Notes under the pieces: model-generated | What the model saw: only the letters and a program-made list of their open reading frames with translations | Told to the model about the DNA's origin: nothing | The model's database searches: none | Position numbers and translations under genes: made by a program | Assembly: GCA_973895155.1 (NCBI GenBank) | Contig: OZ316896.1 | Span: forward strand, 11,212,795 to 11,276,794 | Length of the DNA stretch: 64,000 nucleotides | Direction of reading: 5' to 3' | Source of the DNA: Marsupella aquatica | Lineage: Eukaryota > Plantae > Marchantiophyta | In this document: one piece after another, positions 17,966-59,300 of the stretch | Position numbering within the stretch: position 1 is the stretch's first letter | Layout: each line of letters opens with the position of its first letter

Positions 17966-18442
17966 TTTGAATTTGAACCCCCCATGGACCACATTTCCCA
18001 AAATTTGAACTTAATTGAAATAACTTGATATTCATAAATTCCAGTATTTTCTAGTTTTGGAGAAATGCTAGAGGAGTAGGTAAGTTACACTTCCATCAAA
18101 GTGAGAGTGAACTTTTGGACATCTTGGTTGAGTTTTTCATTAAAAAAATGAGGAGGGGCAAATTTCATTAGATTATTTTTCATTATGTTAATATGAAATA
18201 CCTTTTGGGCTTTTGTCTTTTTAGGTCTCCTCCTTCTCTAGTTGCATTGCATGTGCAAAACTAAAACATTTTTCAGTACTCGTGATCATCAAGTTATGGG
18301 CCCCAAACTCCCATGGACCACCAAAATGTGATCCATGGGAGCACTGTGTCCAACATGGTGGTCCATCCTGGCTTCACTTTCCATGTTATTATATATAAAC
18401 TCAAATTTTGGGAAATGTTGTCCATTGGGTTTCAAATTCAAA
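17966..18442. mobile_element. MITE-like element with ~60-bp imperfect TIRs, upstream of the cyclophilin
   Basis: tttgaatttgaacccccatggaccacatttcccaaaatttga versus tcaaattttgggaaatgttgtccattgggtttcaaattcaaa. Confidence 0.65.
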
Positions 18443-24400: not shown

Positions 24401-25849
24401 TTTTGCAAGTTTTGTCTGAATCTCTATATACATTCAAAGAACAGGTAATCAGGCCAATCAAACTAATTGTTTATGCTCAAAATGACTCTCCACCAAAGAT
24501 ACACCTTGCATGCTAAGTTCTACTGAAAAGGAGCTTACAACCAGGGTCTTCCCCTTATATGGGCTTCCAAATGCCATATGCAAGCTAGTTTCTCAGCTAG
24601 TGTTTTCCTTGATGTTAGAAGGCTGTTTTCCCCTTTAAGATAAGAAAATGAGCTCATTGTCCTGCAACTACTCTTGGACGAGTGTGCAAGCTGGTTGTTC
24701 AAAGACAAATTCCCCTTTCAGATAAGAAACGCTAAGCAAAATCTCTTGGACTAGAAAGCTACAGTAGATTTTCACTTTGTTCAAAAAACGCATGCCTGGA
24801 CTGATATATCTCCAAGCTAAAGTACAACCCTCGCCTCTATAATGAATTTTAGTATCTTATTATCTTAATTTGTCTGAGTGCAAAATTAGTGTTACTAAAA
24901 ATGAGAGTGAAACAGGACTTTTCTAGACTAATTTATGCAGGCTAGAGCAAAAAGTTTTCATGCAAAAACCTGGGGAACCCACCTTCTTTCCATTGGGTAA
25001 GACCATTGTTTGTTCTTGTTTAGGTGACACTAATTGCCAAAAACACTGTAGGAGAGTGGTTTTGGACTTTGGGACCCAAGTCACATTATCACCTCGTTTC
25101 TTGAGGTTGCATGGCCCCAGATTCCACATTTGACCCTTGGCAACTACCCTGCGTTGACATGAGAGGTATTATTATCTTGAGAAGGGAAACACCACCAAAG
25201 ACATGCATGTAAAGTATTTGGCTATACATTTTTAGCCGTGACAAAGGTGTTTCACATAGTAAGGTTCAAGGCAGTGGATATTTTGAAGAGGGGCCATGCA
25301 ACGTCACAAAACCAATCATGTGTTTGACCATATTATCCCGGAGGGAGCAGCTTTCAATCGGAACCTTTGCAAATAATTATCTACACCTTTCACAGCAATC
25401 AGCCTTTTTTATTGCATGAAAGAGTGTTATCTTTAAAAATCTCTAGCATGTACATTTTGAACTTTTCTCCAAAGGGAAGTGCCCTAGGTTCTGCATGAAA
25501 ATCTTGATCCTGACATGTATGAATATCATTAAAAATGACCATTTCTCTCTTACTGTTAGTAACACTACTTCTTTACTCGCACTATTTAGTTACTTAACAC
25601 TGAAGGGTGAAGGGTGAAGTTCTCAAACCTGCCAATTTCCCCAATGAGTTACCTGTAATGAGACCCATGTCAAGTTTGACGGGTGGAAATGGAGAAGTGT
25701 TAGATGTAGAGAGTGAGTGAAAAGCCATGTTGGATGGTCCCATCTGTTTGTCATGTAAAAGAGTCGATGTGTTTGTCCACCGAAAAAAGTACACCACAGC
25801 GTAGGAGTGTTCATGAAAGTGAAGCCCGAATTGAGCAAAGAGTAGTGTA

Positions 25850-28808: not shown

Positions 28809-29522
28809 TCAAGCCTGATCAAGAGCAAGGTCAGCACCAACCACCTCCACCAGGTGCAAAAACAATGCAGGATCGCAGAAGAGGAGTGCCCGACTTTGAA
28901 ACTCGGGAGATCCGACCATTTCCTCGGAGCACTTCATCATCGTTTGGAACAGATGGTGAGAGAGCAGATGCTTGTTAATGACATATTTCTCCCTCCTCCC
29001 GCTTCGTTCACCAACCACCACTGTCATGTAGTCCTCTCTCTCCTCTTCATCGTTCGGCAGTTTCTCCAGCGTGATGGTCCTCGGTTCACAATTGCTCTGA
29101 TCCAAGCCCTCAATGTTCTTATCACGCCCTAAAGCCTTTTCCGCATGCCCGCTGCTGCTATTGCTAGTAGCGCCTGAGTTGCTACTGCTGCTGCTGCTAC
29201 TATTACGTCTGAATCCCAGACGTCTTCCGAACGACTTCGACAGGTTGAATGCCTTGGGAGAAGAAAATCCCCAATGTGAGTCGCTGCCGCTGGACGCAGC
29301 AGCAGGGGCGCGGGGGGAAGAATCCCATGACCCGGGCGTCCTCGGAGAAGACGAGCTACAGGGGCTGGATGACCTAGACCGCGTGCGTGTCAGAAACTTC
29401 AGCCTCTTCGATTGAAGCCCCGTATGCTCCATATCTGAATCACTGGTGCCGCCCTCCCCAGCTCCGCTCCCACCGCTGTTATCACGCCCTTTCGGAGAAT
29501 GTCGGCTCCTCCACGATGCCAT
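28809..29522 (-). CDS. SAUR (Auxin_inducible)-domain protein with a long Ser/Arg-rich N-terminal extension, 237 aa, intronless
   Basis: C-terminus DYMTVVVGERSGRREKYVINKHLLSHHLFQTMMKCSEEMVG...LLFCDPALF matches the SAUR consensus GxxxVYVG..RRFVV...L.HPLF..LL..AEEEFG....L.IPC....F. Confidence 0.8.
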   Translation of the reverse strand: MASWRSRHSPKGRDNSGGSGAGEGGTSDSDMEHTGLQSKRLKFLTRTRSRSSSPCSSSSPRTPGSWDSSPRAPAAASSGSDSHWGFSSPKAFNLSKSFGRRLGFRRNSSSSSSSNSGATSNSSSGHAEKALGRDKNIEGLDQSNCEPRTITLEKLPNDEEEREDYMTVVVGERSGRREKYVINKHLLSHHLFQTMMKCSEEMVGSPEFQSRALLFCDPALFLHLVEVVGADLALDQA

Positions 29523-31994
29523 CGCTTATATATAAGCTATTACTGATCAACCTCCCTGTCCTCCGATATAAGCTGATCCACTACCGTTCACGTCCCTGAA
29601 CTTCCTCACAATCCAACCTACCGGGACAACGAATGTTGCGCCGCAGAATTCAAGGACTTGCGGGTGCGCGTTCCAGTCACTCGTTCGCATGTATCCCTCG
29701 TCTACTTGTCACTCTCCACTCTACACTGCTTGAAGATGAAAAATCCTTCCTATGGGGAAAAGCGGAACCGTTCCAATCCAAAATCCTTAGAAGATCCGGT
29801 CGAGCAAACAACGAATGGAAGATGAGAGCTCTACGGGTAGAGAACGCGGAAATTGAGCAAGATTGGGTCGATTTCATTCGCAAGGTTCAATCAATCAAGT
29901 CCTTAGACGACACGATAGTGGTTCGGCGGAGACGAGAGCTCGTCGGTCCGCAAAGAGAGGAGGAAGGAGAGGGCATTGTTCGGGACGCCCGCCACTCTCT
30001 GAGCCACACGAGAATGGTGCCTCGACTTATATGCCTCCACCCGTCTCGTGATCTCGCCGACCCATCGCGAGAATCATGATCAGAGACGCGAATTCGATGC
30101 TGCGAGTCAGAGCTTTACCACTGTCATGGCAACAGAACCACAACATGGAGGAGAGAGAGCGGAAGAGTCGGAAAAGCAGGAGAACAGCATAACGACTTCG
30201 CGACGAAGAAGAAGAGAAGAGAAGAGAAGAGAAGAGCCGTTTTCCACGACGACGACGCGGAGTAAAAAAAACGTGTCACCGCACTGTGAGAAGCGAAAGT
30301 TACCACCTCTTTGCGGTTGCTCGTTCCCCCCACGCGGCGCCCTCCCATTCCCACAGCGACGAAAGCTGCCGGACTCATTACACAATCGTGACGCGCATTT
30401 AAAGACCCCCGAATTATTTTGGCGCCGCGCGACGGATTGTGCCGGCATCTTCCCATCCTCGCCGTCGGTGGATAAGATCGACCGTTGAGAACTGAGTGCG
30501 GAAAATTAACCCCCCATTTTCCAGCGCGCCAATTCCCGCCCGTTTGAGAGTCCTCTGTGAGTCTGTGCGGTCTGCTCGGGCCTGCCCGATGCCATGAGCC
30601 CATGCCTGCAGGGACGTGCCCGCTGCCCCGTCGGGCCGCAGACCGAAAGCGACATCATGATTGTGCCCGCCTGCAAAAATACTCACCGTATTATTACGAT
30701 ATAACTATATCTCGGAATGACAATAAATGACGCCCGTGGATCCCACATCTCAACGGTTCAAGATCTTCCACCGCGAATTGCAAGGTTTCTGTCAGAAAGC
30801 GTCCCAGCCAGGACCGTACTACGATCTTTTGAGACGACGGGCAAGTGAAACGCGCCACCGTACCATATCTGGTTTTACTGGCAGCCAAGACGGATCTTGC
30901 GAGATGTGTCGGTCTGTATCCGTCGATGATTATTTTGGACGGCCCATGTCAAACTGGAGGGATCGCACTCGTAATTCTATTGACACACGCTCTGCGCGAG
31001 GTGAAAAAGGCGGACAGCGCCATGTCGGTGATTACCGTACAGGATAATACTGACCCGCGCCAAAATGGAAGATTTTTTTCTGCGAGAGACCTCGTAAGGG
31101 CCGTCGATGCCTAAGATCGGCGGCCTTTATGAACTGTCATAAAAATGTGCCTTTGTTGCAGTCTGTCGTTACCGTCCAAAACTTAAATACGTTGCCTTTT
31201 GAGACTTTTGGAGCCCGAATTTACAATATACGGTATCGTACAGGAAAACGGTCTCAGGAACTGTACGAGTACATTTTCCGATACACGTTATTTCAAGACA
31301 AAGGACGTTAAAAAGAAAAAAGTTTAAATAGCTGCGCACGTAAGAAAAAAATGTTTTCTGTTTTCCCCCGCCCCCTTTTGAACTCATGCTTTACTGACGA
31401 GTCAAATGTAACACGAGCAACTTCATTACGTCAACCCTTATTGGGTTTGGTTACTGTGACTGGAGGTTCACCCACCCTAGTAAACACAACTCAGAAAAGC
31501 TTCCCTCGCCTACAACAACAACAAAAGGTAATAACACGAATCTATGAAGGAGATTTCTTTGGGAGGTTTTTGTAAATGGGATGAAAAATGAGAAGAGCGG
31601 AACTTGTTTTCTTTTATCTTTAAGGGGTCATGTACATATTCTAGATTGTAGCCCATGCTCAAATGATTATGTTAATAAAACTATGCTATATAGAACAGAG
31701 GGTCTACATTTTGATTGGCGTCAATGATAACTCAATAATGGTCTATCTTTGGTTTGCTGTATAATTGGAGAGATATCAATCATCATACATGTATGTGTTA
31801 AAGTGAACAAAATCTGGCCCTTGAATGGTGGGCCTTGTTGGCCAAATCCTGCCCCCACCTTGTACTTTCATGCTTCCGTAAATTAGTAGAAGCTTTGGTT
31901 GCATTTGACCCTGGCTTGTGTGACATTGTCTGACCCCAATAGTTCTGAACATAACTATGTTGTAACAAATTCAACCAAAGCAAAATTTGACCAT

Positions 31995-32992: not shown

Positions 32993-33222
32993 TTGGCTAT
33001 CAATAATTGGAGGTTGAATAAAAAACCACTACTGTTACTACTCCTGTTGCTTTGTGGTATTCCAATGCAATCCTTAAGGGGCAGGAAATGGGCCCACAGG
33101 GTCTTTGTGAAAGGACCCATCTCCTGCCCTTTAAGGACTGCATTGGAATACCACAAAGCGGGAATAGTAGTAACAGACTAACAGTAGTGGTTTTTATTCA
33201 ACCTCCAATTATTGAAAGCCAA
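32993..33222. repeat. 230-bp foldback (long inverted repeat); MITE or hairpin-RNA locus
   Basis: Arms ttggctatcaataattggaggttgaataaaaaaccactactgtt...gctttgtggtattccaatgcaatccttaaggggcagga and their near-perfect reverse complement flank a ~20-nt loop. Confidence 0.9.
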
Positions 33223-42400: not shown

Positions 42401-44221
42401 TTCTTACCTGACATCCCAGCTTGGAGAAGCTTTTCAATTGTCTCAACATCTCGAGATTGGGGCCCAAGTGTTGCAATTATCTTGGTCATCGATGAAAAGG
42501 ATTGCTGTGATAAAGAGACATCTCAGTGAGAGTTATGAAAATTATCCTTGAATTTAACTTATTCCTGGTAAGCCAGCAACAACATAATTAAAAAAATTCA
42601 ATGATAAATAAAGCACCTACTTCTAGAATTCTCAACTCAAGAACAATATCCACCATTGTCCAAGGACTTAGATTGCCACTCTCATGGCACAATAGCAACA
42701 CATCTAATATGGCTTTGCAGTTTAATTAGTACTTTTGATGGTGGATCGTCTGCGCGTGCTGGTCCAACAAGAAGTTTAACATCAACGTTTCTCTGCACCA
42801 CTTCACATTGTTATTTCTTGTGAATTCTTTGGAATTGCCTTAGTTACAGCAAGGTAATTAAAAGTGGATGATTTTATGGAAGAAGAGTCACAGCATTCGC
42901 TCATAACTCTGATATTACTTAAGCTCAACAAGAAGTGTTAAGGCTTTGTGCATAACAAGCTGGAATACATAGTCACCAAAATTCACTTTGATCTTCATTA
43001 GTGCTTCAACTTGAGATGACGAATTTGAAGATTCATTTAAGAATTATGTACATCAACTATTTTGTAAGAGGGACTACTATCCTTACTGTGGCGCTCCATG
43101 TAGGTCAATGAAAGTTTACTAAGTCCTGATATTTATACTTGACTAAGCAAGTCAGTAAAAGATCATTCACATTTTATTAGAAATGTTATGATTATTAATT
43201 TCCTGCAAGTGTACAGAGGTTTTGGATGGGTACATCTTCGCCGCTTCCAACTGTAGAGAGTGCAAACTCAAGGTTGATCCGTTTACCATCCATCTCAACA
43301 TTCTCCTCCTGCAAGGGTGTAGGAAAGCAATTTTGATTCTTGTCAACTAGCATGAATGCTAGATAATGATTAATCATGACTGTTGAATGCTTAATCTGTT
43401 GCTTCTTAAGTCCTTTTGAAAACTTGAGCATGAACAGTCAAATTGTTGTTACAGCACATGCAACTCACCCAGTGCGACAGGGGGCAGTACACAGTTGCCA
43501 GGGTGATACTCTACCCCATTGTTTATAACATGTACTTGAAAATGGAGTTAACCAAATTAAAAGATGGGGAAATGCTTGCAACAATTGAGCACAGGACCAG
43601 TAGTAAGGTTACAAAATCCCCTGCCGACTACGGGTGCAAGATGAGTTGGGACATAGATAGCTAGGACACATTGTGCAAGAGAGGCAAACAAGCTAAGCAA
43701 TTCAATTGAGCAAAAACTCAATTTTGAGCACCAAGTCAGATTTTGCCAAGGACAACTGAAAGTAGCTCGGGAATATAAAACTTAGTTTGGGACATGCATC
43801 CACAATTGGCTACTGGATCCCCCGTTCTGCCATGAATTAAACCTTGACTGACACATCAGATAAAGTCAAACAACAAATAGGCACTCTTGAGTTTTCTTAA
43901 ATAGGCAAAATGTGATCAACATTGTGATGACCCATATTGTCCAAATGAATGATTTCACTCAATAAGGGACTTTGGGGCTTCAGCACCCACAAATCCAATC
44001 ATGGATGTCCCGCACTGACTATCCCAACATTAGGACTCTCCAACCTGACAAAGCCATATACTGATCCAATCAATTGATTGTCTGACCAAACAGGCAACAA
44101 TAATTAATTATTCAATTGCTCATGCTGGACTCAATGAGAAGGTTAACGGGATTACCTCATTAGATGTTTCTAGAATGGAGGCCAGCTTGAATGGCTCCTT
44201 GAGGATCATCGATCCTGGCAT
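36479..44221 (-). CDS. Cytosolic pyruvate kinase, intron-rich plant subfamily with ARFDFSWG motif, ~523 aa, 16 exons
   Basis: Exons (minus): 44156-44221, 42408-42504, 42083-42180, 41386-41541, 40955-41032, 40710-40841, 40433-40513, 40230-40301, 39745-39834, 39419-39563, 38543-38631, 38263-38358, 37926-37993, 37234-37333, 37051-37110, 36479-36622 (last acceptor uncertain). Motifs [70 protein letters not shown]. Confidence 0.93.
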
Positions 44222-45766
44222 TTTCCTGGCTTTTAATTCTGTCTGTACCTTTCAGGTAAACGAAAGTCCACACTTGTCACTGTTGTGCCATGTCTAGATC
44301 CTCCGTCCCTCCCTCCCTCTTTCTGAGAACTTTGGACAGAGCAAGGGAGAAACAACAATCAATTGCAAAGAAGGGCAGGAGGCTAGGAGAAATTCATGTA
44401 TGCACAACATGAAAGGGGCAGGAAGAAGATGATTATACAAGTGTGCTACAGTGATAACCAAGGCCATCATAGATGCAGGAGACTGAATGCGTCACGTGGA
44501 TGAGTAAGGCAATGCACGCGACCCCTCGCAAGGCCGGGTTGTTGTTTAGACTGGTTTCACACCTGCAGCTGCCCAAACGTGGGTTCCTTCCCCCAAAAGG
44601 CTGTGTCCATGCTCCCACTTTCTCCATGGGACCAAGTCATGTTCTACATACCAGGATAGCATTAACTTCTTCCTGCAAACACTCTTTCAGATGCTTTAAC
44701 TTACTCACAAATATCAAGTTGACTATTTCTCAAGCTATGACATCCTGGATGACATCAATCAACCCCTACCTGGTAAGGATCACAAAGAGACCTGATAGAA
44801 ACAAACATTAAGGGATTGTGGTGTGGCTTGAACCATGGTCTTGGCAAGTGTGACTCTTTTGTTATTTGGGTTACTCATGGGTCCAGGGCCAGTATGTCCT
44901 TTATTGGATTTGTTTTTGCCAAAATCTGCCTTCACCAAAACCTTTCCCCACTTTTGGTGTAGGTTTGGCAGATTTGGGTTGCATTAACCAGTTTCCTGAA
45001 TTTCCTAGCATCTCTTCCTTGTCACAAGTGAACATTTGTCACTTTGCCAAATCAAAAGCAATTTTTTTAGGTCACAACAGATCATAGCCTTTGTGGTACT
45101 GACCTGTGTGACCACAGTTCATTACTCTCAATGATCATTTACAGATGGTGGCATAAGGAACACTTGCATTCCAGAGAATTCGGAAATGTATTTTTGTAAT
45201 TTAATAAATTTTAAAAATATTTTGGTGAAGTTTGCAACTTGTGAGGGTACGTTCCCAAAAGAGAAGTGTAAAAATTTGACTGCCCGGGCACCAGAAAGAA
45301 AAGTCCTCTGATTGACAGAATTGTGGCATACCTAACACTGGCATCGAGAGAACTAGGATAAATGTTTTGTAACTTCATAAACTTTAGGTATATTTTCTGA
45401 ATTTGGTCACTTGTGCGGTTTTTTCCTCCTGAATCCACCTAAAAATGTGAATTAAAGGCTCGATGTAAAAAAGTAAAGGAAAATTTACCTAATTAGCCCC
45501 ACATGCTGGCAAATCTGCCTACATGTACCAAAAGCTAACTGGGGGAAAACCTATCCTCCTAATTCTTTGATGAGTTCTTGAATGTGTTCCGTCCGCTATC
45601 ATGTCAATGGATATTGAGAGTAGTAAAGCAACCTAATCATTTTGCTACCTTAATATGGTCCTATTGATATACAAAGATAATTCAAGAGTGGAATGTGAAT
45701 TACAGTCTAACTTGCAACAGTGCAACTTGTATTCAACCCTGGTTGCAAAGTGTAATGTGCAATAGC

Positions 45767-45954
45767 TCCTCAGCCCCTGGTTGTCCTGCACAGTTTAGGG
45801 TTTGCCAACAGAGGATAGATGTCCTACTCTAGAGTATGCAATTCTATATACGGTAGCCACAAGGGGACAATACCCAGGGATCCGACAGGGATCCAGACCA
45901 GGAGGGAGAGAGGGTTAAACCAGGGCCCCAAAGCGGGCAACCAGGGGCTGAGGA
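45767..45954. repeat. Inverted repeat pair upstream of pyruvate kinase (MITE remnant?)
   Basis: tcctcagcccctggttgtcc / gggcaaccaggggctgagga match at 19/20, with weaker outward extension. Confidence 0.55.
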
Positions 45955-47475
45955 CGCCTTGCAATCATCCAGGGTTTGCACTTATGGAGTGTGCATTTGA
46001 GAGTTAGATCACTCTATGGAGTTCCCGATTGAGTTGGTGTGATGGATTCACTATTGCCATGATTGTGCTATTTGGTGCAAAATATTCTGACCGAGCTATA
46101 TTCCACTAGCCCAATATTCATCCATTGCATAATATTGTCAATCTTCACTGATGCAGGCACTAATTATGATCAAAATTGTTGTCAAGTATAAGTGAGATGA
46201 CCAGGCAGTAAGGTGCTGTACAAGTATGGGTCTGGCAACTGAATTTCAAAGATTGTGCAAGCAGGGGGGAGTGATGATTGGAAGTGAAAAAAGGTGCACA
46301 ATGGAACCTTTAGGTGTACCTCATACATGGTTAAAGCGCCACTGTCCATGACAAAACCTGGATCCACTGGGTCTCACCATTTTTAGCACCTTTTTCCTGA
46401 AGTTGTGGAGCAAAATCTCACCCTAGTGGAGAGAAATGTGAAAAAGTGAAAAGTCTTGCACACTTGTCCCATAATGGTGGTTTAACCAGTATCACCATAT
46501 TCTATTGGATTGGAAGGCTTTGTTCAAAATGACATTTAGTAAACAGACCCGTAAGGGGGGGGATGATGATTGGAAGTGAAAGAAGTGCACAAATGGCACC
46601 TTTAGGTGTTTGGTTAAGAAAAAAAATATTGGCTTAGAAGGCTTTGCTTCATATGACATTTAGTAAACAGACCCCCAGAAAAAGAAGAGAAGAACGCATA
46701 GATGCCCATCTGGAGAGAATCAACAATCCAGGAGGCCTCGGAAAACGCAGGGTGTTGCTCGTCATCTTCTTCGCCCCTGCCTCGTTAGTTCGTCGCATGG
46801 TCTCCCATTCTCCCCCATGGATTACGATAGGTTGATTATGAAGTCATTCTGCCCCTCTCACTCTCTCAGAGAGTAGAAACGGCACTGCACTTCCACACGT
46901 CGACCATTAAGGTTACGTCAATCAATCAATTGCCGTGGTTTGACGAAAGATTCTCATCATGCTCAAACACTGGCCTAAACCTCCAGCCAGATGCAACAAC
47001 CAGGTCGTGGAATCATGATCCCCAAATACTCGGGAGTGGGCTTTCCACCATGCCCAGAAGCTAGTGTCGCTAGAGCTGTTCACCTTACTGTAAGACACGG
47101 TCTACATCAGAGGTGGCTCTTTATTTATGGCAACATTCTGCCTTTCAAACGAACATCAATCTTGCATTGCAGCTGATCAACATGCTAAGAATTGGATTCC
47201 TTCCAACAACACCGACCACGCCACATCTCACATCGACTAACAAGACGGCGCCACTTGGAACGAAGATGGCCTCTAAAACTAGCGGAATCCATTTGCTTTG
47301 TACCTTTCTCTTTTACTTTTCGTTGAGACAAAAATTGTTTATCTTCTTCTTCATTCTATAAGGCTTTTATTATGCCTTTAGCCTTTACGTTTTGTTCTTT
47401 CCCATCAGTAATTGCAAACCCTTATCTTCTTTTGACTTCGCTCCTGACTTGACATCCTCGTTGATCGGGAGGAGA

Positions 47476-47750
47476 GCTCGCGACTATGATAATGCGAGTC
47501 CGGTTATCCCGGGGCTACAAATTTGGAGAACTCAAATTGAGTCCAGTAGCTGCAGCATTATTACAATACATTACTTTTTCTAAGATGAATCAGCAGATTG
47601 GGTAAGCTCTACAATGCTAGGCTCGCGAGTATAATAATGAGAGTCCGGTTATCCGGTGGCTACAGATTTGTAGAATTCAAATTGAATCCAGTAGCTGCAG
47701 CATTATTACTTTTTCTAAGATGAATCAGCAGATCCGGGTAAGCTCTACAG
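47476..47750. repeat. ~145-bp tandem duplication
   Basis: gctcgcga.tat.ataatg.gagtccggttatcc...gctgcagcattattac...gatgaatcagcagat..gggtaagctctaca occurs twice. Confidence 0.85.
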
Positions 47751-48300
47751 TACAAGGCTAGATTTCGCATAAATTACTTCGCGGATAACAAGAACCGGCA
47801 GAAGATCCGGGGTGCCTCTGCGAGGCTGCGCATTAGTTCACTGTACTTCGTGGACACCTACGGTAGAGATCCGTTTAGACGTTTAGTAGAGGGTTTGTGG
47901 ACCCTCTGAACGGACATCCAAGCGTGTGAGATCGGGTGCAGTGGTAACTTGTTGTGCATATCCTGTTTTGTCACGGAAGCAAGCTCCGTGGTTTAATAGC
48001 ATGCACTGTACCGTGGATTGGTTTGGAACTCGAGGGACTGATGATTGGGAGGGAGTTTCAGTCGGTGCATTGCTGGTGCTCAAACTGGAGATGATATCTA
48101 ATAGGGGGTCTCAATATTGTAGTCGCGACCAAATGCTGTTGCCCGGGTTTGCTTCGGAACGGCCCCGGACAAAAAAATGATGGGCGACTGGCAGGCTGGT
48201 CGACAGGCCATCGTCGCGGACTTTTGCTGACGGCCGTTGCTTATTTTTTGACCGTTACTCACTACCCCTGGCTGTCTGAAACCTTAGTCTAAACCTCGCA

Positions 48301-48483
48301 AAGCAGTTCGACGAGAACATCGCGAGGCATCGAGGCGAAGCAGGTGAATGAGAACGAGGCGCCGAGGCGAAGCAGGTCGACGAGAACACTGTGAGGCATC
48401 GAGGCAAATCCTCACAAGCAGGTCAATGAGAACACTGCGAGGCGCCGAGGCGAAGCAGGTTGACGGGAGCACCGGGAGGCATG
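48301..48483. repeat. Subterminal tandem repeat of the transposon, ~37 bp x5
   Basis: Consensus gcaggtcga(c/t)gagaacactgcgaggc(at/gc)cgaggcgaa. Confidence 0.85.
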
Positions 48484-48965
48484 GCATTTTGAACTTCAAC
48501 GAGTGAGCTTGAGCTTTGTGCAAGAGCTTAGTTGATGAGGCCTTTTGTTCTGTAGTGATTTCAGGTTTGATTGGTTGATGTTGTTGTGAATAGCAAGACT
48601 GATTGAAAGCCGTTGAATCGAAATGCCTGCTTTACATACGTGACAGACTAATTTAGGGCTCAATGCAGTTCCCGGTGGGAAATTGATGTGAATTGATTTC
48701 AGGACTTACATTTGCTTGAGGAGGATTTTGCGTGCGGTTCCTACAGAATAGGGCACTTTCCAGATTTTGAAGCTGGTCGCTATAAGGTGCAAAAAGGTGC
48801 AACTCCATTTCTCAACCTGCATGCTATTTTGGCCATTTTTGGTTAGACTGTCACAGTCCAAGGCAATGGACACGTTCTTCGTGCTTCCTAGGTTGCCTCT
48901 TCCAGGTCTGGGTTTCCTATGGGTTCCCAATTGATGTCTGCCATTTTTTTGACAGGAAGAAAATT

Positions 48966-49604
48966 ATGGCTAAGTGGACCTGTCTCTCAGATGTGGAGGA
49001 GTTTAGGCCGAGTGATCAGACCATCTCTTATCCGCCCTCTATAGTGTGGATTGCCAATTTCGTGGCCCCCAATCCATTCCCACGAAAATTTCTTTATGCA
49101 GCCTGCCCATATAGATTTTCTGGTGGACGTTCGTGTGCAAAATCCCTTGAGTTTGGGTCTCATTGTGGTCATAACCTACCAGGCACTTCCCAATACAGAT
49201 TCAAAGTGATTTGTTTCGATGCCATTTATCCAGGTGTTCCTCCTCTCCATGTGAATTTGTGGGATTCAGCTACTGTTTTGCTTGGATGTACCGCTGCAAA
49301 CTTTAGGTCTTGCTCTGAGACTGAACAACTTGCATATGTGATATCCATAGTGGAGAGCACCCCACGAGTCAAGATTCATCTTCGGTCCTCTGATAAAGGG
49401 GTTTCTGCAACGCATTTGACTCTGTTGGATGCTGCAAAAGTTGCCCTTCCTGCCATGTTGAGAGGGCTGTCCACTCCTGAACAGTCGGCTCCCAACACAC
49501 CAACAAAAGCCATGAAGTCAACTCCAAGAAAGGGCAATGCAAAGAAGTTGCTTGAGGATCTTTGCAAAGCCATTCAGTCAACAGAAATTGAAGACAATGA
49601 TTGA
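48966..49604 (+). CDS. RPA70 C-terminal (DBD-C)-like zinc-ribbon OB-fold protein, 212 aa, transposon cargo
   Basis: Intact ATG-TGA ORF preceded by a polypyrimidine-AG acceptor at 48955. FLYAACP..CAKSL..C.H..YRFKV..FD..VNLWDSATVLLGCTAANF parallels the recalled RPA1 DBD-C pattern YxACP..CxKKV..C..C..YRY.L...D.TG..WVT.FD..AE.LLG..A.EL. Confidence 0.7.
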   Translation: MAKWTCLSDVEEFRPSDQTISYPPSIVWIANFVAPNPFPRKFLYAACPYRFSGGRSCAKSLEFGSHCGHNLPGTSQYRFKVICFDAIYPGVPPLHVNLWDSATVLLGCTAANFRSCSETEQLAYVISIVESTPRVKIHLRSSDKGVSATHLTLLDAAKVALPAMLRGLSTPEQSAPNTPTKAMKSTPRKGNAKKLLEDLCKAIQSTEIEDND

Positions 49605-49832
49605 TGGCGTTGAAGGTCGATAGTTGTGCAGCCATTGTGTTGTTTGAGCACATTTGGTGCATCATTTTGTAAGGCTTATGCCGCTTTGATATAATTATAA
49701 ATGCACACTCCTGTGGGGAGCTCCATCTATGTCAAATACTTTTTGTGAATGGTGTGCAATTCTGCAAATGAATGAGAGCTATGGGCATGGTGTGCATTTG
49801 ATGCAGGTTCGTGGTATTCATTCACTGTGAAC

Positions 49833-51360
49833 ATGCCGAAAGTCTCCAATCGACAACAGTGTCTAAAATGGGTTCGATCACAACTTTATTCCAGCATTCT
49901 TTGCGAAAGTTCCAGCGAGGATGAGACCTTCATGTCCACTAGCTCTGACGGCTCAGCCAACAGTAGTGACGAAAGTGCTTTCAATTCCACAGCAAGTGAT
50001 TCTATCATGGACTTGGACTCATCAAGCGATTCTGAAGCTGGGGTCACTGATCCCACCGATACTAGGGCCAAACCTGGTGAATGGTTGGAGTTGAATTTTG
50101 TAATAGAAAGCCAAAGGTTCTTAGCTGATCGGACCAAAAGAGTTCAATCCAAACAGTTTGCTGATGATTTTTTCAGGCATGTTTTGCCACCTGATTTGTT
50201 TAGACAAATGTGTCGGATGGATAAAGAGGCCTTCTTCCACCTCTTGACTCTGATTGAGATGCACCCAGTGTTCAGTAACAACTCCTTGCATGATCAGGCC
50301 CCCGTTTCTCTTCAATTGGCAACTTGCTTGGACAGGTTAGGACACAATGGCAATGGAGTTTGCTTGAGACGAACCTTGCTCCTTTGGGTCTCAGTGTTGG
50401 TAGTTGTGTCAACTATACAACTAGGGTTGTGACAGCACTGGAAAGTGCCCTTGCTGATTACGTGGCCTGGCCAAACATAGAGGAGAGGATTGCCATATCA
50501 GCAGAATTTGCCAAGACAGGTTTTCCAGGCTGTGTCGGTTTGATTGATGACACATTACTGCCTCTTTCACAACGCCCAGCGATTGATGGAGAATGTTACT
50601 TTGATCAAAAATCTCGGTACTCAAGTAGTATGTGACCATAGGAGGAAGATAACTTTTGTCTATTCTGGTGAGTTATATTTTTTTTTTCAGGTTTGGAATG
50701 TTTTAGCTTGAATTGGACAAATAACATTGTTCAAGTGGATCTTTTTGCTTGTCTCCTTATTCGATCTGTTGGGGGCTTGTTGCAGGAATGCCAGGTTCTT
50801 GCCAAGACATTACATGTCTGAAGCGATCACAACTATGGGCTGAGATCCATTCAAACTCAAATTTTGATGAAGGTCAATACATCCTGGGGGACTCTGGATA
50901 TGTTAATGCTCCACACATGGTAGCGAGTTATAAGAATACATATCAACAGAGAGACAAAGAACAATTCAACACCTGTGTGGCAAAAACCCGGTATGTGAAT
51001 GAACACTGCATTGGTGTTCTAAAATCTCGATGGTTTTCACTGAAGGAGATAAGGACACAGCTGAACAAGAAAAAGGACAATGTGTGGATGTGTCGTTGGA
51101 TTAGAGTGTGCACATTGCTGCACAATTTTGTTTTGTTCATGAAGGATGATTGGAGACAGGAAGATATGGAATGCCCGTTGGAAGTGACGGATTTTGATGA
51201 GGCAGGGAGTGGGGACTCACAGAACATGAGAGAAGAGACAGGTGCCACTATAGCTCGGAATGAGGCATCCCGAGTTGCAGGCCGAGCATTGCAGAGGCGT
51301 GTGATGCAACATACATTGGAATTCAAGAGTGGGCCTGGAGGTTTTCTCAATGACGAATAG
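49833..51360 (+). pseudogene. Harbinger/PIF-family DDE transposase (HARBI1-like), frameshifted
   Basis: Motifs FRQMCRMDKEAF, HPVFSNNS..QAPVSLQL..L.RLGHNGNG, GFPGCVGLIDDT, QVVCDHRRKI, PGSCQD, ILGDSGY, FN...R..NEHCIGVLKSRW, LLHNF. Intron 50668-50785. Frameshift near 50386 (W-G-LSVGS) and a frameshifting deletion near 50622. Confidence 0.92.
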
Positions 51361-51615
51361 CATCTACTTAGCAGTCACCGAAAGCACAAGTGTAATTGAG
51401 TTGTAGCAGTATAGTTAGTTGCAAATAGTAGTGAACTCGTATTGTATATATGAAAGTATATTCACGTACTTCAATTGTGAACTTGTATTTTGCCATTTGG
51501 AATAAAATAACATTCATTGTTTATACACAAGAGATAAGGCGATTATATTTTAGCAGTTTTGTGCTAAATTCGAAGCTTTATAAATTCCAAACACAAAATT
51601 TGTTTCATTGACTTA

Positions 51616-53301
51616 TCAATCAAATGGATCATGGCTACCTGTAAGATCTTCCTCAGTAAACATATCATCTACATCCCGGTCTGTACTTGCACTGGGTGCA
51701 GGAGCATCTATAAGTTTCATCAATCTAGTAATCTCTGCTTCTGACTTCTGGCTACGGACCATTTCAGTTAGGAAGGATGCTTTCATTGTCATGTGTGCCA
51801 TCATAAATTGGTGACTCTGATCTATTCGCATACGTTTTTCAGCATTTGATGCTGAAAGTTTCTCCAATCTGAATTTGTGGATCCTATCCAGACGGTCTTT
51901 TTTTGCAGCAGTTGTTCTGGCCTCTTTCCGGTCATCCAATTCAGCTTTTTTCCACTTCTCTTTGGACCCGATTAATTCCTTCCGGAATTCTGATTTGTCT
52001 CTGCACCTGTCCTGATAAACTGATGCTAGGTTGTTCTTTGATGTTGCGCTACCCTGGTTCTCTAACCTCCTATTTGCACGAGCTCCATGATCATTACCCG
52101 CTGCTACATTTGGATTAGACCTCTGTGGTGCACCAGTGGACTGTGATGGCCTCTATAGTGGGGTTCGACGATGGTTCTGGCCAGCATTTTGTTGGGGAGG
52201 CGGGGCACATTCCTCTGTGCCAACCGAGGGAGTCTGTTGTTGCTGCACAGGAGTTTCCTCTTCGGGATCAATCACGGGAGGTGGTGGCACAACATTCTCA
52301 CTCTCAGCAGGTGGAGATGGTTCGTCATCAACCTCTGCTGGCCCATCTGTGACAAGGAGTGCAAAACAATGGCATCAATCAACCTGCTTTACAAACATAC
52401 GACAGATTTAGAAAAGACTAGCTCTTTATTGTTGATTAATACCTGTGAGTATGTGTGTAGCTTCAGAATCATGGGGCTCAGAATCGTTCCATTCACTGTC
52501 AATGTTGTCCGTTGCATCTTCAGTAGTGTCCTCAACAATGATCAGCCCAGAATTGCGAAATCCCTGGTTGAAACTACTTGGTGTTGCCACGTTCGCACGT
52601 TCTCCATAAATCATGTGCATTCTGTCAAAATGGGGGCACATCTTCTCCAGTTTCCCTTGAATCGTCATACCGGTTTGAAACTCCTCTTCTGTCAATCCTC
52701 CACCGCTAGAGTTCTTCACTTCCAAAGCCTTCCTATACATGTCAACGTATCTCCCAAATCTCTTGCTCAGATTCTGTCCATCCATGATTGGGAAACCATA
52801 CTCTGCTAGGACTGCTGCCATGCTTGTAAATGTGGACTTCTTGGACTGGTATCGGCCACCAATCCTGGTCTTCTTCCCAGCCCCGTGTATGGCGTTGAAA
52901 TTCTCCCTGACCTCAATGTAATCCAGAATTTTTGCGTAATCTTCATGCTTGAGCTTTGTGCCTCGATCAACAGGTACTCTTGAACTAGGGCGACGTCCTG
53001 GCTGGAGATGATTGACTGGAGCTCGTCCAGTCTGCCCTGCTCCTATATTTTGCGTGTTACACATGGAAAACGGAATCGATTGTTGACCCTGTGACATCCC
53101 CATACCTTGCGCAGCAGCACCTACGACAGTTGGGTGTGGAGGAACAAAAGCACTCATCGGAGCTCCTGCATTTGACCTTGGAGTGTTGGAAGGCATGTCG
53201 ATGGGAGAGGAAGAATCACCGGCGTCCGCTTCACAGAAATCTGTGCTACTGCGCTCAACATCTGCTGCGGAAATGAAGTTGTGAATGGTGATGGGCTCCA
53301 T
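51616..53301 (-). pseudogene. Myb/SANT-like DNA-binding partner gene of the transposon (~529 codons) with one in-frame stop
   Basis: Exons 52443-53301 and 51616-52346 joined by a GT-AG intron. Motifs ILDYIEVRENF, KRFGRYVDMYRKA..SSGGGL, LEKMCPHFDRMHMIYGERANV, plus a charged C-terminus. In-frame TAG at 52153-52155, with the frame open on both sides. Confidence 0.8.
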
Positions 53302-54696
53302 ATTGCAGCTGCTTGCTTGAAGTCCTGCGAGCTTCGTAAGTGGAGTTAGCGCAATGCAATGCGGAGAGGAACCCTCGTTGTGAATCCTTTGAATTTCAAA
53401 TTTTGATTACGCGGGCTTAGCCAAGTCTTCTTGGAGGGTAAAGTCTATAGCCCTGCGGGACCCCGTGCGGGACTCCTTAGAGCCTAATTTTGAGCGGCCC
53501 CATTTCTTGTTTTGGTCCGTCAATGGACTCACACAGGAGGTTTCATTTTTAATTCACTGTGCTGCCCGCCGTCCGTGACTTGCTGCCGTCACGCTCAAAA
53601 CGGTCGGTGACCAAATACCGTGGAATCCAACTCGGCCCCAATATTGAGTCCCCCTAATGATCCTAAGAAGCTCGAATCCTAAACAAAGGGATGGGCAGAA
53701 CGTTCTCGTTTACTTTCGGAGAATTTTATTTACAAACGGTTACTCCTTCCAAAGGCAAAAGAGATGTTTTAAGGGTCAGCATTTGCCCTTCTACGTACCC
53801 CGAAAACGGATATCCCGTTCAACAACACCAAAAAAAATGCCGTCTAATTGTTTACAGTCGTCAAGGAAGAAGTCTCTAGTTGCCAGCATTGCTGATGTTG
53901 GGTATCTACTGTACAACGATACCATCGTCGTTGCTTTCGATTGAGTTCGTTCCACACTTCAGCCCCGACTTCAGCTCCAAAACGCATCCGAACGCCACGT
54001 GCAGCCAAAGAAGGGATCATCCGCATTTCCTTTCGAGACAGTGTGGAACAAGGGAAGGGAAGAAAGAAAAGGGAAAATAGGGAGAAAAAAGTAAAAGTGG
54101 CATTGGATTGGACTCTTGGCCCTGAGGCCTCAGCCTAGGCCATTGGGCTGACCGGCTGACCAACATTGACACTTGAGAAGAAACGACATGCCAACCTCAC
54201 TCAATCAGACAACAACATGAGCGTCGTGGACAACAAACGACAGTGGACATGCCCGTCAAGCACGGCAAAGAACAAAACGAGCAGCACTCTAAGACGGGCA
54301 ATGAGGAGTGACTACGACAAGAAGCGACACCACCGGGACCAACATGAAGCATAATAATTGGAGAAGAGGTTCCGCAGACAAGCAACGAGACGCGCCTTCG
54401 AAAAGCAATTCCAGACGTCCACAAACGAGCATCTCATCAGGCACAGAGCCCATGCATGACGGAAACAACGCTTGGTTATACAGTCCTGTTGGGACTAGGT
54501 CACTGGGGACCGGTGGGACTGTGGGAGCAAACAATCAACAAAAGCGATTGAGAGAGCCATAAGAGCCCACCATGGAAACAAAGCAGTGCTAGAAATAGAC
54601 GAAATTCACTGTTGAGGGAGTCATCCGCCATGCAACAAAACCAACAGCGCGGATGCGATAGCTAGAAGCAGACGAATTTACTGTTGAGCATCACGA

Positions 54697-54882
54697 TTTT
54701 CGTCTGATTTAAGGTGGGACACGTCTTTGTTCAGGCGGCTACACACTGACGTATCCACTGTTATTGGGCCTCCTCAGTCCAGTCCTCACCATTTTGGCAT
54801 TTTCGTCTGATTTGAGGTGGGATATGTCTTTGTTCAGGCGACAAGACACAGACGGATCCACTGTTAGTGGGCCTCCTCACCG
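54697..54882. repeat. ~103-bp spaced duplication
   Basis: ttttcgtctgattt.aggtggga.a.gtc.ttgttcaggcg...atccactgtta.tgggcctcctca occurs twice. Confidence 0.8.
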
Positions 54883-55857
54883 TTTGCGTTTGTGAGGCAA
54901 CTGTTGGAGGACATACTTTTGTTTAAGCCGCCAAACAGAGACGAAATCACTGTTGTTGGTTCTCATCAAATAATTTCATTCAGTGTGAGGTCACTGTGGG
55001 TGGACATGTCTCCACAACTTTGTTGGTGGACATATCAGCATATCTCCTCCATATCTTTGCTTTCCTACCCAGGAAAGGAGGAGTATTTTAGACCTCTCTT
55101 TCTTAGTGTCGAGCTCTATTATTGTGATTACGACCCTTACTCTTGCTGGGCTCCACTGCTCATTTTTATTTTACCGATCAAGAGTTTGAGCAAGAGTTTC
55201 TATGCCCCAAGTTTACTGCGATGCAGCAGACACACGGCAGTAACATCAGTGTTTGTGGGTATCATGTCACCAAGAACCATCAGCCTTTAGGGCATTATAC
55301 CTGCCACACTTTTTTGTCTTGAATGAATTTTTCACTTTTTTGTGTTGATATAGCATGCTCATCTGGAACATGCTTTACTTTTTGTCTGGTAGTGATGTAC
55401 TTTTTGTCTGGTGGTAGTGATGTATAAGTGTAGTGATATATAAGTGGATAAAATTAGGGAATAAAACTAAAATACAAATGTGAATAGGGATAAAATAATA
55501 TAAATAAAGCATCATGACCAATGAAAAATACAATTAAATTTTATGTCACAAAGATGCTAAGAGTTGTGCACTTACTTCAATGTGCCTTAATGACATTTAC
55601 TCATTTCAATAAAAACCATAAACATAGTAAAGAAAGCCACGAGGGGAACTTAAGACACAATCTGTTCACTTTATTTAGAATCATTCCTCTCATTCATGAA
55701 AATACTTAAAAGTGGTAGAAAATGAATTCCTTGGTTTCTCTCTAGGAGAAAACAAAATTTCAAAATTACGGGGGCTGCCAAAATAAATTAAAAATCCTAT
55801 AGGACACCAAAATTTAAAGGGGTCCAAAAATGAATTCAAAATCTCTATGATACAAAG

Positions 55858-56361
55858 GATGCCCCTTGTTAAGGTACATTCAAATAAAAATACATGACAC
55901 AAAAATAAGAATAAGACAAAACATGAAAGTTGGTATCACCATATAGCAGCTTCTAAAATGAATGAATTTTTCATTTACTAGCCTGATTGTCCATTCTTTG
56001 AATATTAGACGCTTGCATTTTGATGCCCCTGGTTAAGGTACATTCAAATAAAAATAAAAATACATGACACAAAAATAAGAATAAGACAAAACATGAAAGT
56101 TGGTATCACCATATAGTAGCTTCTAAAATGAATGAATTTTTCATTTACTAGCCTGATTGTCCATTCTTTGAATATTAGACGCTTGCATTTTGATGCCCCT
56201 GGTTAAGGTACATTCAAATAAAAATAAAAATACATGACACAAAAATAAGAATAAGACAAAACATGAAAGTTGGTATCACCATATAGCAGCTTCTAAAATG
56301 AATGAATTTTTCATTTACTAGCCTGATTGTCCATTCTTTGAATATTAGACGCTTGCACTTT
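55858..56361. repeat. Near-perfect tandem triplication, 165-171 bp x3
   Basis: Units start atgcccct(t/g)gttaaggtacattcaaataaaaat near 55859, 56023 and 56194, with few substitutions. Confidence 0.95.
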
Positions 56362-59300
56362 GCGGGTTGCACTTTGCCTGTCCACTGATTTGACAATTAG
56401 CTGCCAGTGGTCATTTCAAAGACTCACCCTGCCCAGTCCATGTTTTTCTCTCAGTCATGGGTCTACTGTAGAGGTTTCACTTAGACTACACCCCTGAAGA
56501 AATAGCTTTCTATTGTGATTATATAGTTAGATAATAAATAATAGATCAGGGTACAAACAGTGGAGTCAACGACAGGACCCTGGAGGAAGTGACACAGTTC
56601 CCCTGCTTTTCATGCTAGCTAACAGTGTATTATTGGGACTTCTTTATTTTAATTTAAGTCATGAGGGTCATAGTGCCTCTTCCCTACCAAAATAAATAAA
56701 AGAACAAAAAACAATAACCAATACAAAACAGACATGTCATGAGAATCTAGTCTCAATCTAGAAAAGAGCAAACCATTAATGCTATTCCTGAGATTAGTTA
56801 ATCGTGAATCCGTTATGGGGCAATGAGATGTTAATATTGGCGCTATTACCATAGTTACTGACTATTCTTATTAGAATCACTTGCAATTACTGTTGATACT
56901 TAGTTAGTGCTAATAAGGCAATTTCTTGTGGTATTCAAATTTTGCAAGCCACATAGTTATTGTGAGTGAAGTTGATGGAAGATAAGACTATTTAAGACTA
57001 ATAGTGTAGATGGAAAACCTTGATCTTGTATTTTTGTATATATATCTTATATATACATTTTTCAATTTTTCTTCAACCATCATTTAGAGTAAAAGTAACT
57101 GTTCTCAATCAATTATTAGTGCATGGGTCACTCTCCTTTGGAACCCCTCTATTAAAATGAACAGTGAGATTTATATATTTATTTGACTTTAATCATTTGC
57201 GCAAAGGTTAAAAGCAAAAGAAAGGAACTCATTTTTTCGTCCCGAAAGAGAAAACATCTGATAAAGCACGCACGACCATCCTAAAAGTGTGCCACACCTA
57301 ATGTGTGAAAAAGAAATAAAGAACGATTTCCCCGTTACTGTACCCACGTTTTTAAAATGCAACATTTTCATTTAATACGAGAACTTTGCAACTCCCCACA
57401 AAGTCCCACGTTTCTTTCCTCTTTTATAAAGCAGAGTTGGCACTTTTTAATACCTTTTCCTAAGTGCAAACAGGAGAGAAATAATTTTGCTAAATGACAA
57501 CTTTATAAATACATACTCTTGATAAGTGTACATGTGCACTTATCAGCAAGCGCAGAATCCCATCAGATTGCACTTATGGCAGGACTTATGGAGTAGGATC
57601 CCAAATTGAGGCAGGGATGTACACTTTGGGTTGCTAGTCACAAGACTGCTCAGGTGGGTGCTCTATTGACAAGTGCATGACCCTACAGGTTTGCACTTAT
57701 CACATAGTGCAAACTCCCATTCAATGCACACTGGATGCTTCTTCCTGGGAGTGTAAGAGCTGTAGTGTGCTGTACTTTTACCAAAGTGCCAACCATGGCT
57801 AAGTAACCAGGTCCATGACGAGGAGCTTGGGCCCATCTGCACCATAAAACCAACAAAAATCCCCGAAAAGTGTTGACAACTATTTGATTGGGCAGTCAGA
57901 ATTTCACTTTGGGAAGTTTATACTTACCAAATGACCAGAATATGTCTTAATGAGGGAGAAAGTTGCTTAGAGGATCCCTGGCAAGAAACCTTCACTTCAT
58001 GAGGCCGCCCTAAGTTTTTCACTAGCTTGGTGAGGGCCCAATGAGCCTGTCACATTGCCAAGGTTCTAGCAATGAGGTTGAATGAAGGTGATCACTACTC
58101 TTTAAGCCTGACAAATTGAGTCACAATCCTCCAGTTGAGGTCATGGGGCAATGCTATGAATGCTAAGTTGTTCCATTCTGCAGCAACAGAATTTCAGGTG
58201 TGGAGCATATCGCAACGCCCTTCTGGCATTTCAGCCCCAGGCAATTCGAATCATAAGTGGTTCAACTGAGAGATGACACTTAACTCACCCTTGATCTGTG
58301 CCTAACTAGCAGTAAACTCACCCTGATTTGGCAATATTACCTACAACTCTATTGGGACCTCACATCTTCTTGGTGTTTTTGCCTGAATGTTCATTTGGGG
58401 TAGAGCTTCGTTGCAGACTAGAGAGATCTAAGAAGCCAAGGGGCTGAGAAGGGCCAAGGTGTTGGGGATAATCCTTATCCTGAGACACCATGCACATGTA
58501 AACACCATACAAAGTAGTCAACACAGCAAGTATGTGGTTCACCTCACAACTGAGATTACGTCCACGGGAAAAGCAAGAGACCTTTACTTCTCTCTTGCTT
58601 CACTCCAACAATGAACTAAAGATCCACCAGGGGCTGACATCAGCCCTGGTTATACACAACATGCATCACTGCTAACCTTAGCTAACATGTTTCATTTGTG
58701 TTGTCTTGTAGTGATATGTAAATGACTATTTACATAGTATTTGATAGGATTGAGTAACAAAAATGCAACATGCCAAATAAAGGTACATGTTCCATAATGA
58801 CCAGGAAAATTACAAGTTAACAAGTCTGGAAAATAGTGCACATAAAGTACAGATTCTCACTTGCTTTGTGACACTCAAATCAATCAAAAATTGTGCAAAT
58901 AATGTACAAAATATACTCCCTTGCCATAGGTAATGACAAAAACAAACCATTAGCTTAGCCAATACAAGTTTGAGGAGCACTTAAAGCAAAGGAGAGGAGT
59001 CCACACCTCAAAGTATGAATTCTCTCTCTCATTCACTAGAATTGGCAGAAATTTCATAAAATCTGTTAAAGGGGGTGATTGCACTATATTGAAAACTCAG
59101 TGTAGTGGGGAATTTGAGCCTTACCATAGGGATTAAATAACACTTAGAGGGGTGCCAAAGTAATCTTAAGTCTAAATCCCCCCCCCCAAAAAAAAAAACA
59201 AAAAAAAAACAGAAAAAAACATAGAAAAAACAAGAAGAAGAAGAAGTGGTGCACCTTGTTTAAACACATTAAAGTAAAAATATATGATAAAAACATTTAG

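Follow-up and report, generated by a model that had tools for sequence, protein, structure and literature searches.

What is a gene resembling a replication protein A (RPA) subunit doing inside a cut-and-paste transposon? Rolling-circle transposons with RPA-like genes make single-stranded DNA (ssDNA) by design, whereas a cut-and-paste DDE element has no obvious job for such a protein. The question is raised by a 64,000-nucleotide stretch of the genome of the liverwort Marsupella aquatica (assembly GCA_973895155.1, contig OZ316896.1, positions 11,212,795 to 11,276,794, forward strand; hereafter the window, to which all positions refer), in which a first-pass annotation made from the letters alone described a Harbinger-type unit bounded by terminal inverted repeats (TIRs) as well as by target-site duplications (TSDs), and containing an intact 212-amino-acid open reading frame (ORF), a DDE transposase and a convergent Myb/SANT-like gene. 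It suggested an undescribed three-component family, whose third protein, with an oligonucleotide/oligosaccharide-binding (OB) fold, would bind ssDNA intermediates during excision or repair or counter host silencing. The reading that we favour, with slightly less than even confidence, is that the copy at this locus is defective and belongs to a recently mobile, multi-copy Harbinger family of the Pangu type, in which the third gene, here called the OB gene, encodes an accessory ssDNA-binding protein favouring sister-templated repair of the donor site.

The two TIRs (48103–48119 and 53639–53655) are complementary at 16 of 17 positions, with one mismatch, and a search of the 64-kb window for the TIR pattern, allowing up to three mismatches, returned both element ends only (chance mean 0.35). 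The element was compared with four public sequencing runs from two studies (X1–X4), which contain 72–87% of its sequence words, a fifth run, X5, with 0.03 of the words being left out, and contigs from the four runs were compared over positions 47000–54800. One X1 contig joins both flanks through one AAT and lacks the element, and so represents an empty site (joint from 48093 to 53654, short side of 47 letters, one extra base just upstream). Because this empty site carries a single AAT, the AAT that borders the element is a genuine duplication, and the TIR- and TSD-bounded unit of the first-pass annotation is borne out. Contigs of X3 and X4 cross the boundary between left flank and TIR without differences, and since the site is empty in one run and filled in two, the element has moved. 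In X3 and X4 the left end is inserted a second time, beside a different flank, and X1 and X2 hold a derivative of about 0.4 kb in which 48365–53502 is skipped and both element ends are kept. The element is real, multi-copy and polymorphic between samples, these being public runs of unstated purity and ploidy; the family is recently mobile and the present copy is defective. The X1/X2 derivative (48103–48364 joined to 53503–53655) resembles a miniature inverted-repeat transposable element (MITE). CpG dinucleotides are depleted in all three genes (observed/expected 0.35–0.53) and also in the flanks (44000–58000), and the 5′ 860 bp of the element is free of this depletion (0.86), consistent with a promoter region that lacks methylation or has recently been protected.

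The defects lie in the transposase and in the convergent second gene (ORF2). The C-terminal part of the transposase matches Pfam DDE_Tnp_4 (E = 5.9e-16), and the D, D and E motifs are legible across the breaks, as in DDE_Tnp_4/IS5-type enzymes; the family identity given earlier therefore stands, but the gene is not intact, with frame changes near 50385 and 50620, where contigs of three of the four runs carry 1 and 11 extra bases. The first catalytic D (50546–50548) is followed by another D in place of the usual G. ORF2 is indeed a convergent gene, but its Myb/SANT identity is weak: the 291-amino-acid exon has no Pfam match, the trimmed domain reaches Myb_DNA-bind_4 at E = 0.047 and 14.5 bits, under the cut-off of 27, and the Atlas ranks unnamed proteins of streptophytes and basidiomycetes first, Myb clusters scoring 0.80–0.83. 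A word-based homolog search with the exon found nothing. ORF2 also has an in-frame stop at 52153–52155, where other copies have a different base and a sense codon. Because both genes are broken, the present copy is non-autonomous, with the OB gene alone intact.

Its DDE_Tnp_4/IS5-type transposase, its TIRs and a short TSD borne out by the empty site place the element in the PHIS (PIF/Harbinger-like) superfamily, to which the Pangu group belongs. Canonical PIF/Harbinger elements are defined by TWA duplications, and Pangu elements by ANT duplications, TIRs whose first letters are AG or GG and the lack of known motifs in the second ORF (PMC4482050). AAT stands at both sides of the element and at the empty site, and canonical PIF/Harbinger membership is rejected because this triplet is not TWA; it does agree with ANT, and the 17-bp TIRs starting with AG lie within the 11–40 bp, AG- or GG-starting range of Pangu/Harbinger2. 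Canonical elements (PIF, Pong and Harbinger3_DR; PMC4482050, PMC9179366) likewise have TIRs, a 3-bp TSD, a DDE transposase with a DNA-binding partner and short deletion derivatives, but those described there combine TWA with a clear Myb/SANT domain and no third gene, unlike the AAT, weak Myb/SANT likeness and third gene found here. With the Pangu group the element has in common an ANT or AWT TSD, a short AG-starting TIR, DDE_Tnp_4 and a second ORF with little or no recognizable domain; Pangu elements are, however, described with two ORFs and the present one has three genes (PMC4482050). The nearest printed row in that paper is Pangu-2_MLP of Melampsora larici-populina, identical by eye at 43 of 69 catalytic-block positions, which is Repbase Harbinger-3_MLP and has an AWT TSD. 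Most other Pangu transposases in its Figure S3 have motifs that differ, by eye, from those of the present transposase, and for this reason we tentatively assign the element to a rust-type subgroup; no land plant appears among the hosts in the accessible 30 of the 35 Pangu rows of its supplement 1. The AAT target and the transposase motifs thus point to the Pangu (ANT/AWT) group, with the rust-fungus Harbinger-3_MLP nearest. The catalytic blocks are about 62% identical by eye, and Basidiomycota are among the best Atlas clusters for ORF2 and for the OB protein; horizontal transfer of the lineage between plant and fungus is possible.

The question of the third gene depends on whether it belongs to the element at all. 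We consider it highly improbable that the three genes are not one unit, with the OB ORF a nested insertion or confined to the present copy. No contig covers the entire element, which leaves some room for such a view, but variant copies in X1, X2 and X4 share the junction from OB coding sequence into the spacer (3, 2 and 2 different contigs, respectively, with 0–20 differences, among the longest records listed), and in a further deletion derivative, seen in three of the four runs, the OB start is fused to ORF2 sequence (49088 to 52175, short side of 30 letters). No flanking repeats, no inverted repeat or TIR pair longer than 9 bp and no CTRRT Helitron-type end were found around the OB ORF. In X3, a contig that bridges the spacer between OB stop and transposase start, taking in 23 and 26 bases of the respective ORFs, is covered to a depth of 280 compared with 36 for a flank contig, as a rough guide. 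Within the present family, the OB gene belongs to the element; an origin of this ORF by nested or copy-specific insertion, either of which the first-pass annotation had named as fatal to its proposal, is largely refuted by its presence in several copies and by the absence of nested-insertion ends around it. A nested Helitron at this locus was considered separately and rejected, as the spacer holds no CTRRT end and the unit is bounded by TIRs and TSDs.

An acceptor-like site lies 26 nt before the transposase start in the present copy, and diverged copies have, by eye, an acceptor-like AG 15–19 nt ahead of that start; an acceptor-like AG also precedes the OB start codon in a diverged paralog (by eye). 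Such sites before both genes, together with the GT-AG spacer between them (Table 1), suggest a single promoter with alternative acceptors.

Table 1. Features of the Harbinger-type element, with positions in the window.
Feature	Position	Strand	Remarks
Harbinger-type unit	48103–53655		5,553 bp; TIR- and TSD-bounded
Left TSD, AAT	48100–48102		From sequence; the empty site of run X1 has one AAT
Left TIR	48103–48119	+	17 bp, starts with AG; from sequence
Subterminal tandem repeats	48286–48491	+	32–46 bp; the ORF2 protein may bind here, or they may be leader exon
Putative 5′-leader intron	48503–48955	+	Donor-like site at 48503; acceptor-like site ends 10 nt before OB start
OB gene	48966–49604	+	212 amino acids, intact; predicted OB fold of the RPA70 DBD-C kind, including the C47/C57/C67/H69 zinc-ribbon motif (residues 1–156), S/T-P-rich linker, C-terminal helix (residues 192–205)
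Putative GT-AG intron	49669–49806	+	Fills most of the 228-bp gap from OB stop to transposase start
DDE transposase gene (DDE_Tnp_4)	49833–51360	+	Putative intron 50668–50785; broken in present copy
Convergent second gene (ORF2)	51616–53301	-	Putative intron 52347–52442; weakly Myb/SANT-like domain in exon 1; premature stop in present copy
Right TIR	53639–53655	-	17 bp; from sequence
Right TSD, AAT	53656–53658		From sequence and a run X1 contig

A HMMER search recovered 91 homolog clusters of the OB protein at E ≤ 0.001, most of them 200–300 amino acids long. An alignment of the query with 58 of the 91 matches, the remainder being fragments, long-tailed or weak (P0024 was excluded as a repeat artefact), gave an AlphaFold2 model with a predicted local distance difference test (pLDDT) score of 90.3, compared with a useless 31 for prediction from the single sequence. 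The predicted model contains an OB barrel with an inserted zinc ribbon. Ten Foldseek matches were obtained at E ≤ 0.001, nine of them RPA or RPA-containing complexes and one Teb1 OB-C, with no viral structure at that threshold, and an independent structure aligner placed DNA-binding domain C (DBD-C) of RPA70 and Teb1 first over residues 1–156 (Z 13.3–10.3), the best match being 4gnx_C (Z 13.3, root-mean-square deviation 3.1, 137 residues aligned). The 59-sequence profile had one match among PDB sequences, to yeast RPA1 DBD-C (6i52_C, E = 0.0019); individual family members matched Rep_fac-A_C (5 of 59) and CDC24_OB3 (7 of 59) at E ≤ 0.1; and in the Atlas a Rep_fac-A_C cluster scored 0.91, preceded by two fungal clusters without names (Basidiomycota and Ascomycota). 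The RPA-like zinc/OB fold proposed for ORF 48966–49604 is supported by these comparisons, and its frame is open as had been described.

RPA70 DBD-C and Tetrahymena Teb1 OB-C (4gnx, 1l1o, 6i52 and 3u50) likewise consist of an OB barrel with an inserted zinc ribbon (Z 10–13), but identity is 11–21%, the OB protein stands alone with no DBD-A, -B or -F, and an S/T-P linker parts its barrel from the terminal helix. The fourth zinc ligand also differs, with a predicted C-C-C-H motif (C47-C57-C67-H69, complete in 49 of 59 rows) instead of the four-cysteine site of RPA70 DBD-C. Identification as a full RPA70/RPA1 is rejected, since the 212 residues hold one OB domain and not the tandem DBD-F, -A, -B and -C. 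C47 is conserved in 59/59 rows, H69 in 55/57, Y44 in 58/59 and F/W99 in 57/59; the two aromatic positions match RPA DBD-C motifs, positions that presumably face ssDNA in RPA. S/T-P density in the tail is six times that of the core, and a helix-type pattern occurs in 28 of 50 tails compared with 10% of shuffles; the query itself fails this pattern, its helix being visible in the model. On the modelled structure, the OB protein is a stand-alone DBD-C-like protein with one OB domain, and we regard its fold and its link to the element within the present family as solid.

The first-pass annotation had taken PIF/Harbinger elements to be normally two-component, which is too strong: HarbingerS, with a SET gene, and the three-protein PHISTA, with TET/JBP and a third protein, have been published (PMC12730594). 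They likewise keep an extra gene stably inside a Harbinger-like element, but their extra genes encode chromatin or DNA-modifying enzymes, among which an OB fold is not reported in the accessible part of that paper, and PHISTA has a TA TSD. The statement that Helitrons can carry RPA70-like cargo was correct (PMC11417382, PMC9033089), and these genes resemble the present one in encoding a transposon-borne RPA-like OB protein; Helitrons, however, move by rolling circle with an obligatory ssDNA intermediate and have no TIR or TSD, in contrast to the cut-and-paste DDE element described here, with its single DBD-C-like domain and C-C-C-H motif. No published account of an RPA-like gene in a Harbinger was found in the full-text literature, judged mostly by listings and with Repbase and subscription papers outside reach, and the accessible text of a bioRxiv paper on C. 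inopinata does not mention accessory ORFs. What may be undescribed is therefore the RPA-like third gene in a Harbinger, and not the three-gene Harbinger as such.

The OB gene could nevertheless be a passenger whose main home is elsewhere, as RPA cargo of the Helitron type or in a family of host genes, and which this Harbinger family captured once and amplified without being helped by it; we judge this somewhat unlikely. RPA genes are recurrent and often dispensable Helitron cargo (PMC11417382), accessory genes in rusts are carried passively from one DNA transposon superfamily to another (PMC12730594), and the nearest OB homolog is only 52% identical. Variation within the family also suits a passenger: of 27 listed differences in the OB ORF among close copies (best-supported rows), 7 are synonymous and 20 non-synonymous, where 24% would be synonymous at random and 33% for transitions, so that the ORF is, as far as these counts tell, varying neutrally. 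Dead or decaying copies of any cut-and-paste element vary neutrally; the eight differences listed for the transposase (4 synonymous, 4 non-synonymous) are too few to serve as a control. At greater depth the zinc ligands and the core are conserved at 22–50% identity, which indicates long-term constraint on the OB protein family, whatever its carrier. Diverged OB paralogs at loose ends in X1, X2 and X4 are in frame over the 24–32 bases shown and keep C57, F79, D85 and F113, and those of X1 and X4 differ, by eye over 18 codons, by 5 silent codon differences and 3 residue changes. Neutral evolution, which the first-pass annotation had said would speak against a component, is accordingly seen among close copies, and at depth the protein family is clearly constrained.

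Other observations argue against a passenger. The OB gene is whole, intact and oriented as the transposase, with matching acceptor-like sites and no nested ends; none of the 14 longer homologs scanned carries a fused helicase, Rep or other transposable-element domain; the layout of one OB domain, linker and helix is kept in both clades of homologs; and diverged OB paralogs occur in the same runs as diverged transposases, which is co-occurrence and not linkage. Six of the 30 clusters looked up have a named organism, in every case a liverwort (five Calypogeia fissa and one Riccia sorocarpa, R1sor_014200). The seven diverged C. fissa proteins, CAM6099887.1, CAM6082296.1, CAM6105707.1, CAM6089661.1, CAM6095858.1, CAM6129755.1 and CAM6099404.1, occupy seven separate contigs, with the five clusters scattered over a quick tree of the homologs; this pattern fits a mobile gene family and does not name its carrier. 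Homologs checked for fusion to transposase or ORF2 sequence showed none. A word-based homolog search returned nothing with the OB protein and 4 proteins with the OB profile. Matches to OB patterns numbered 29 in metagenome, 23 in viral and 25 in prokaryote contigs, none of them confirmed, a transposase DNA motif gave 24 metagenome loci, none with transposase, ORF2 or OB similarity, and transposase matches were 0 of 5 in viral contigs and 4 loci in prokaryote contigs, all chance matches of 15–20 amino acids. One unrelated chance match, in a cyanobacterial metagenome-assembled genome (L025:1037–2854, + strand), is a group II intron reverse transcriptase-like ORF beside a topoisomerase I-like gene (by eye). 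A bolder reading would see an old three-component Harbinger-like lineage across liverworts, with a transposase near those of rust fungi and a miniature RPA subunit spliced from the transposase unit that steers excision repair to sister-templated restoration; we find this doubtful.

Donor-site repair is the step thought to decide the copy gain of cut-and-paste elements, and the mechanism that we propose for an accessory ssDNA-binding protein acts there. Messenger RNAs of the OB gene and of the transposase would both arise from one left-end promoter, through alternative 3′ splice sites, and the ORF2 protein would bind the element ends and partner the transposase, as in other Harbingers, in which a Myb-like protein binds both (PMC9179366). 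The ssDNA open to a cut-and-paste element would be the resected donor break and insertion gaps. The OB domain may bind such DNA weakly, and a lone DBD-C would probably need a partner or tether, for which the terminal helix is a candidate: it could bring the domain to the break via host RPA32/RPA14, via the transposase or via the OB protein itself, and the S/T-P linker might act as a cell-cycle switch. There the OB protein would protect the resected donor-site ends and favour sister-templated gap repair, which would restore the element after excision and raise its copy number, an outcome that may be useful in a haploid-dominant host.

We caution that several results weigh against this proposal. 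The neutral variation among close copies is one; the broken transposase and second gene of the present copy are another. Harbingers transpose with two proteins (PMC9179366), so that they can do without a third. In RPA, DBD-C binds ssDNA weakly and serves chiefly for trimerization (PMC8210275, PMC6303327). Searched by itself, the OB query matches nothing significantly in Pfam or among PDB sequences, its Atlas recognition score is under the level of known families, and linkage of an OB gene to a transposase is established for the present family only.

Some of the same features would suit a true component that acts through protein contacts and not on transposition intermediates, as a decoy or variant RPA subunit titrating host RPA32/RPA14 or telomere or homologous-recombination factors, or as an RNA-binding anti-silencing protein. 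The best structural matches are trimerization-core domains (1l1o, 8rk2 and Teb1 OB-C), the strong DBD-A/B domains are missing, a conserved C-terminal helix follows the core, and other Harbinger accessory genes encode chromatin enzymes (PMC12730594). The conserved aromatics at RPA DBD-C motif positions argue against this alternative, as does the lack of a match to any chromatin-enzyme or RNA-binding family in Pfam scans of the query and family members, and we consider it distinctly unlikely; nothing found here supports the earlier idea that the protein counters host silencing.

Elsewhere in the window, a SAUR/auxin-inducible gene with a long Ser-rich N-terminal part lies at 28812–29525 on the minus strand (Pfam PF02519, 28.8 bits, above the cut-off); like the liverwort homologs of the OB protein, it points to a probable land-plant host. 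Two TIR-like pairs of 47–48 bp, spaced 354 and 629 bp (17980–18429 and 24866–25588), are probable MITEs, and a long hairpin at 32993–33222, in which inverted repeats of 64 bp (86%) and of 32 bp (97%) are nested, is a MITE or a microRNA-like foldback. A tandem array of 2.8 copies of a 170-bp unit, 99% identical, occupies 55882–56362.

If the OB gene is a passenger, it represents a further case of accessory-gene traffic among DNA transposons. If, as we tentatively favour, it is a conserved component, it points to element-encoded control of donor-site repair and would assign a function to a liverwort protein family that has no name as yet and comprises about 90 clusters.

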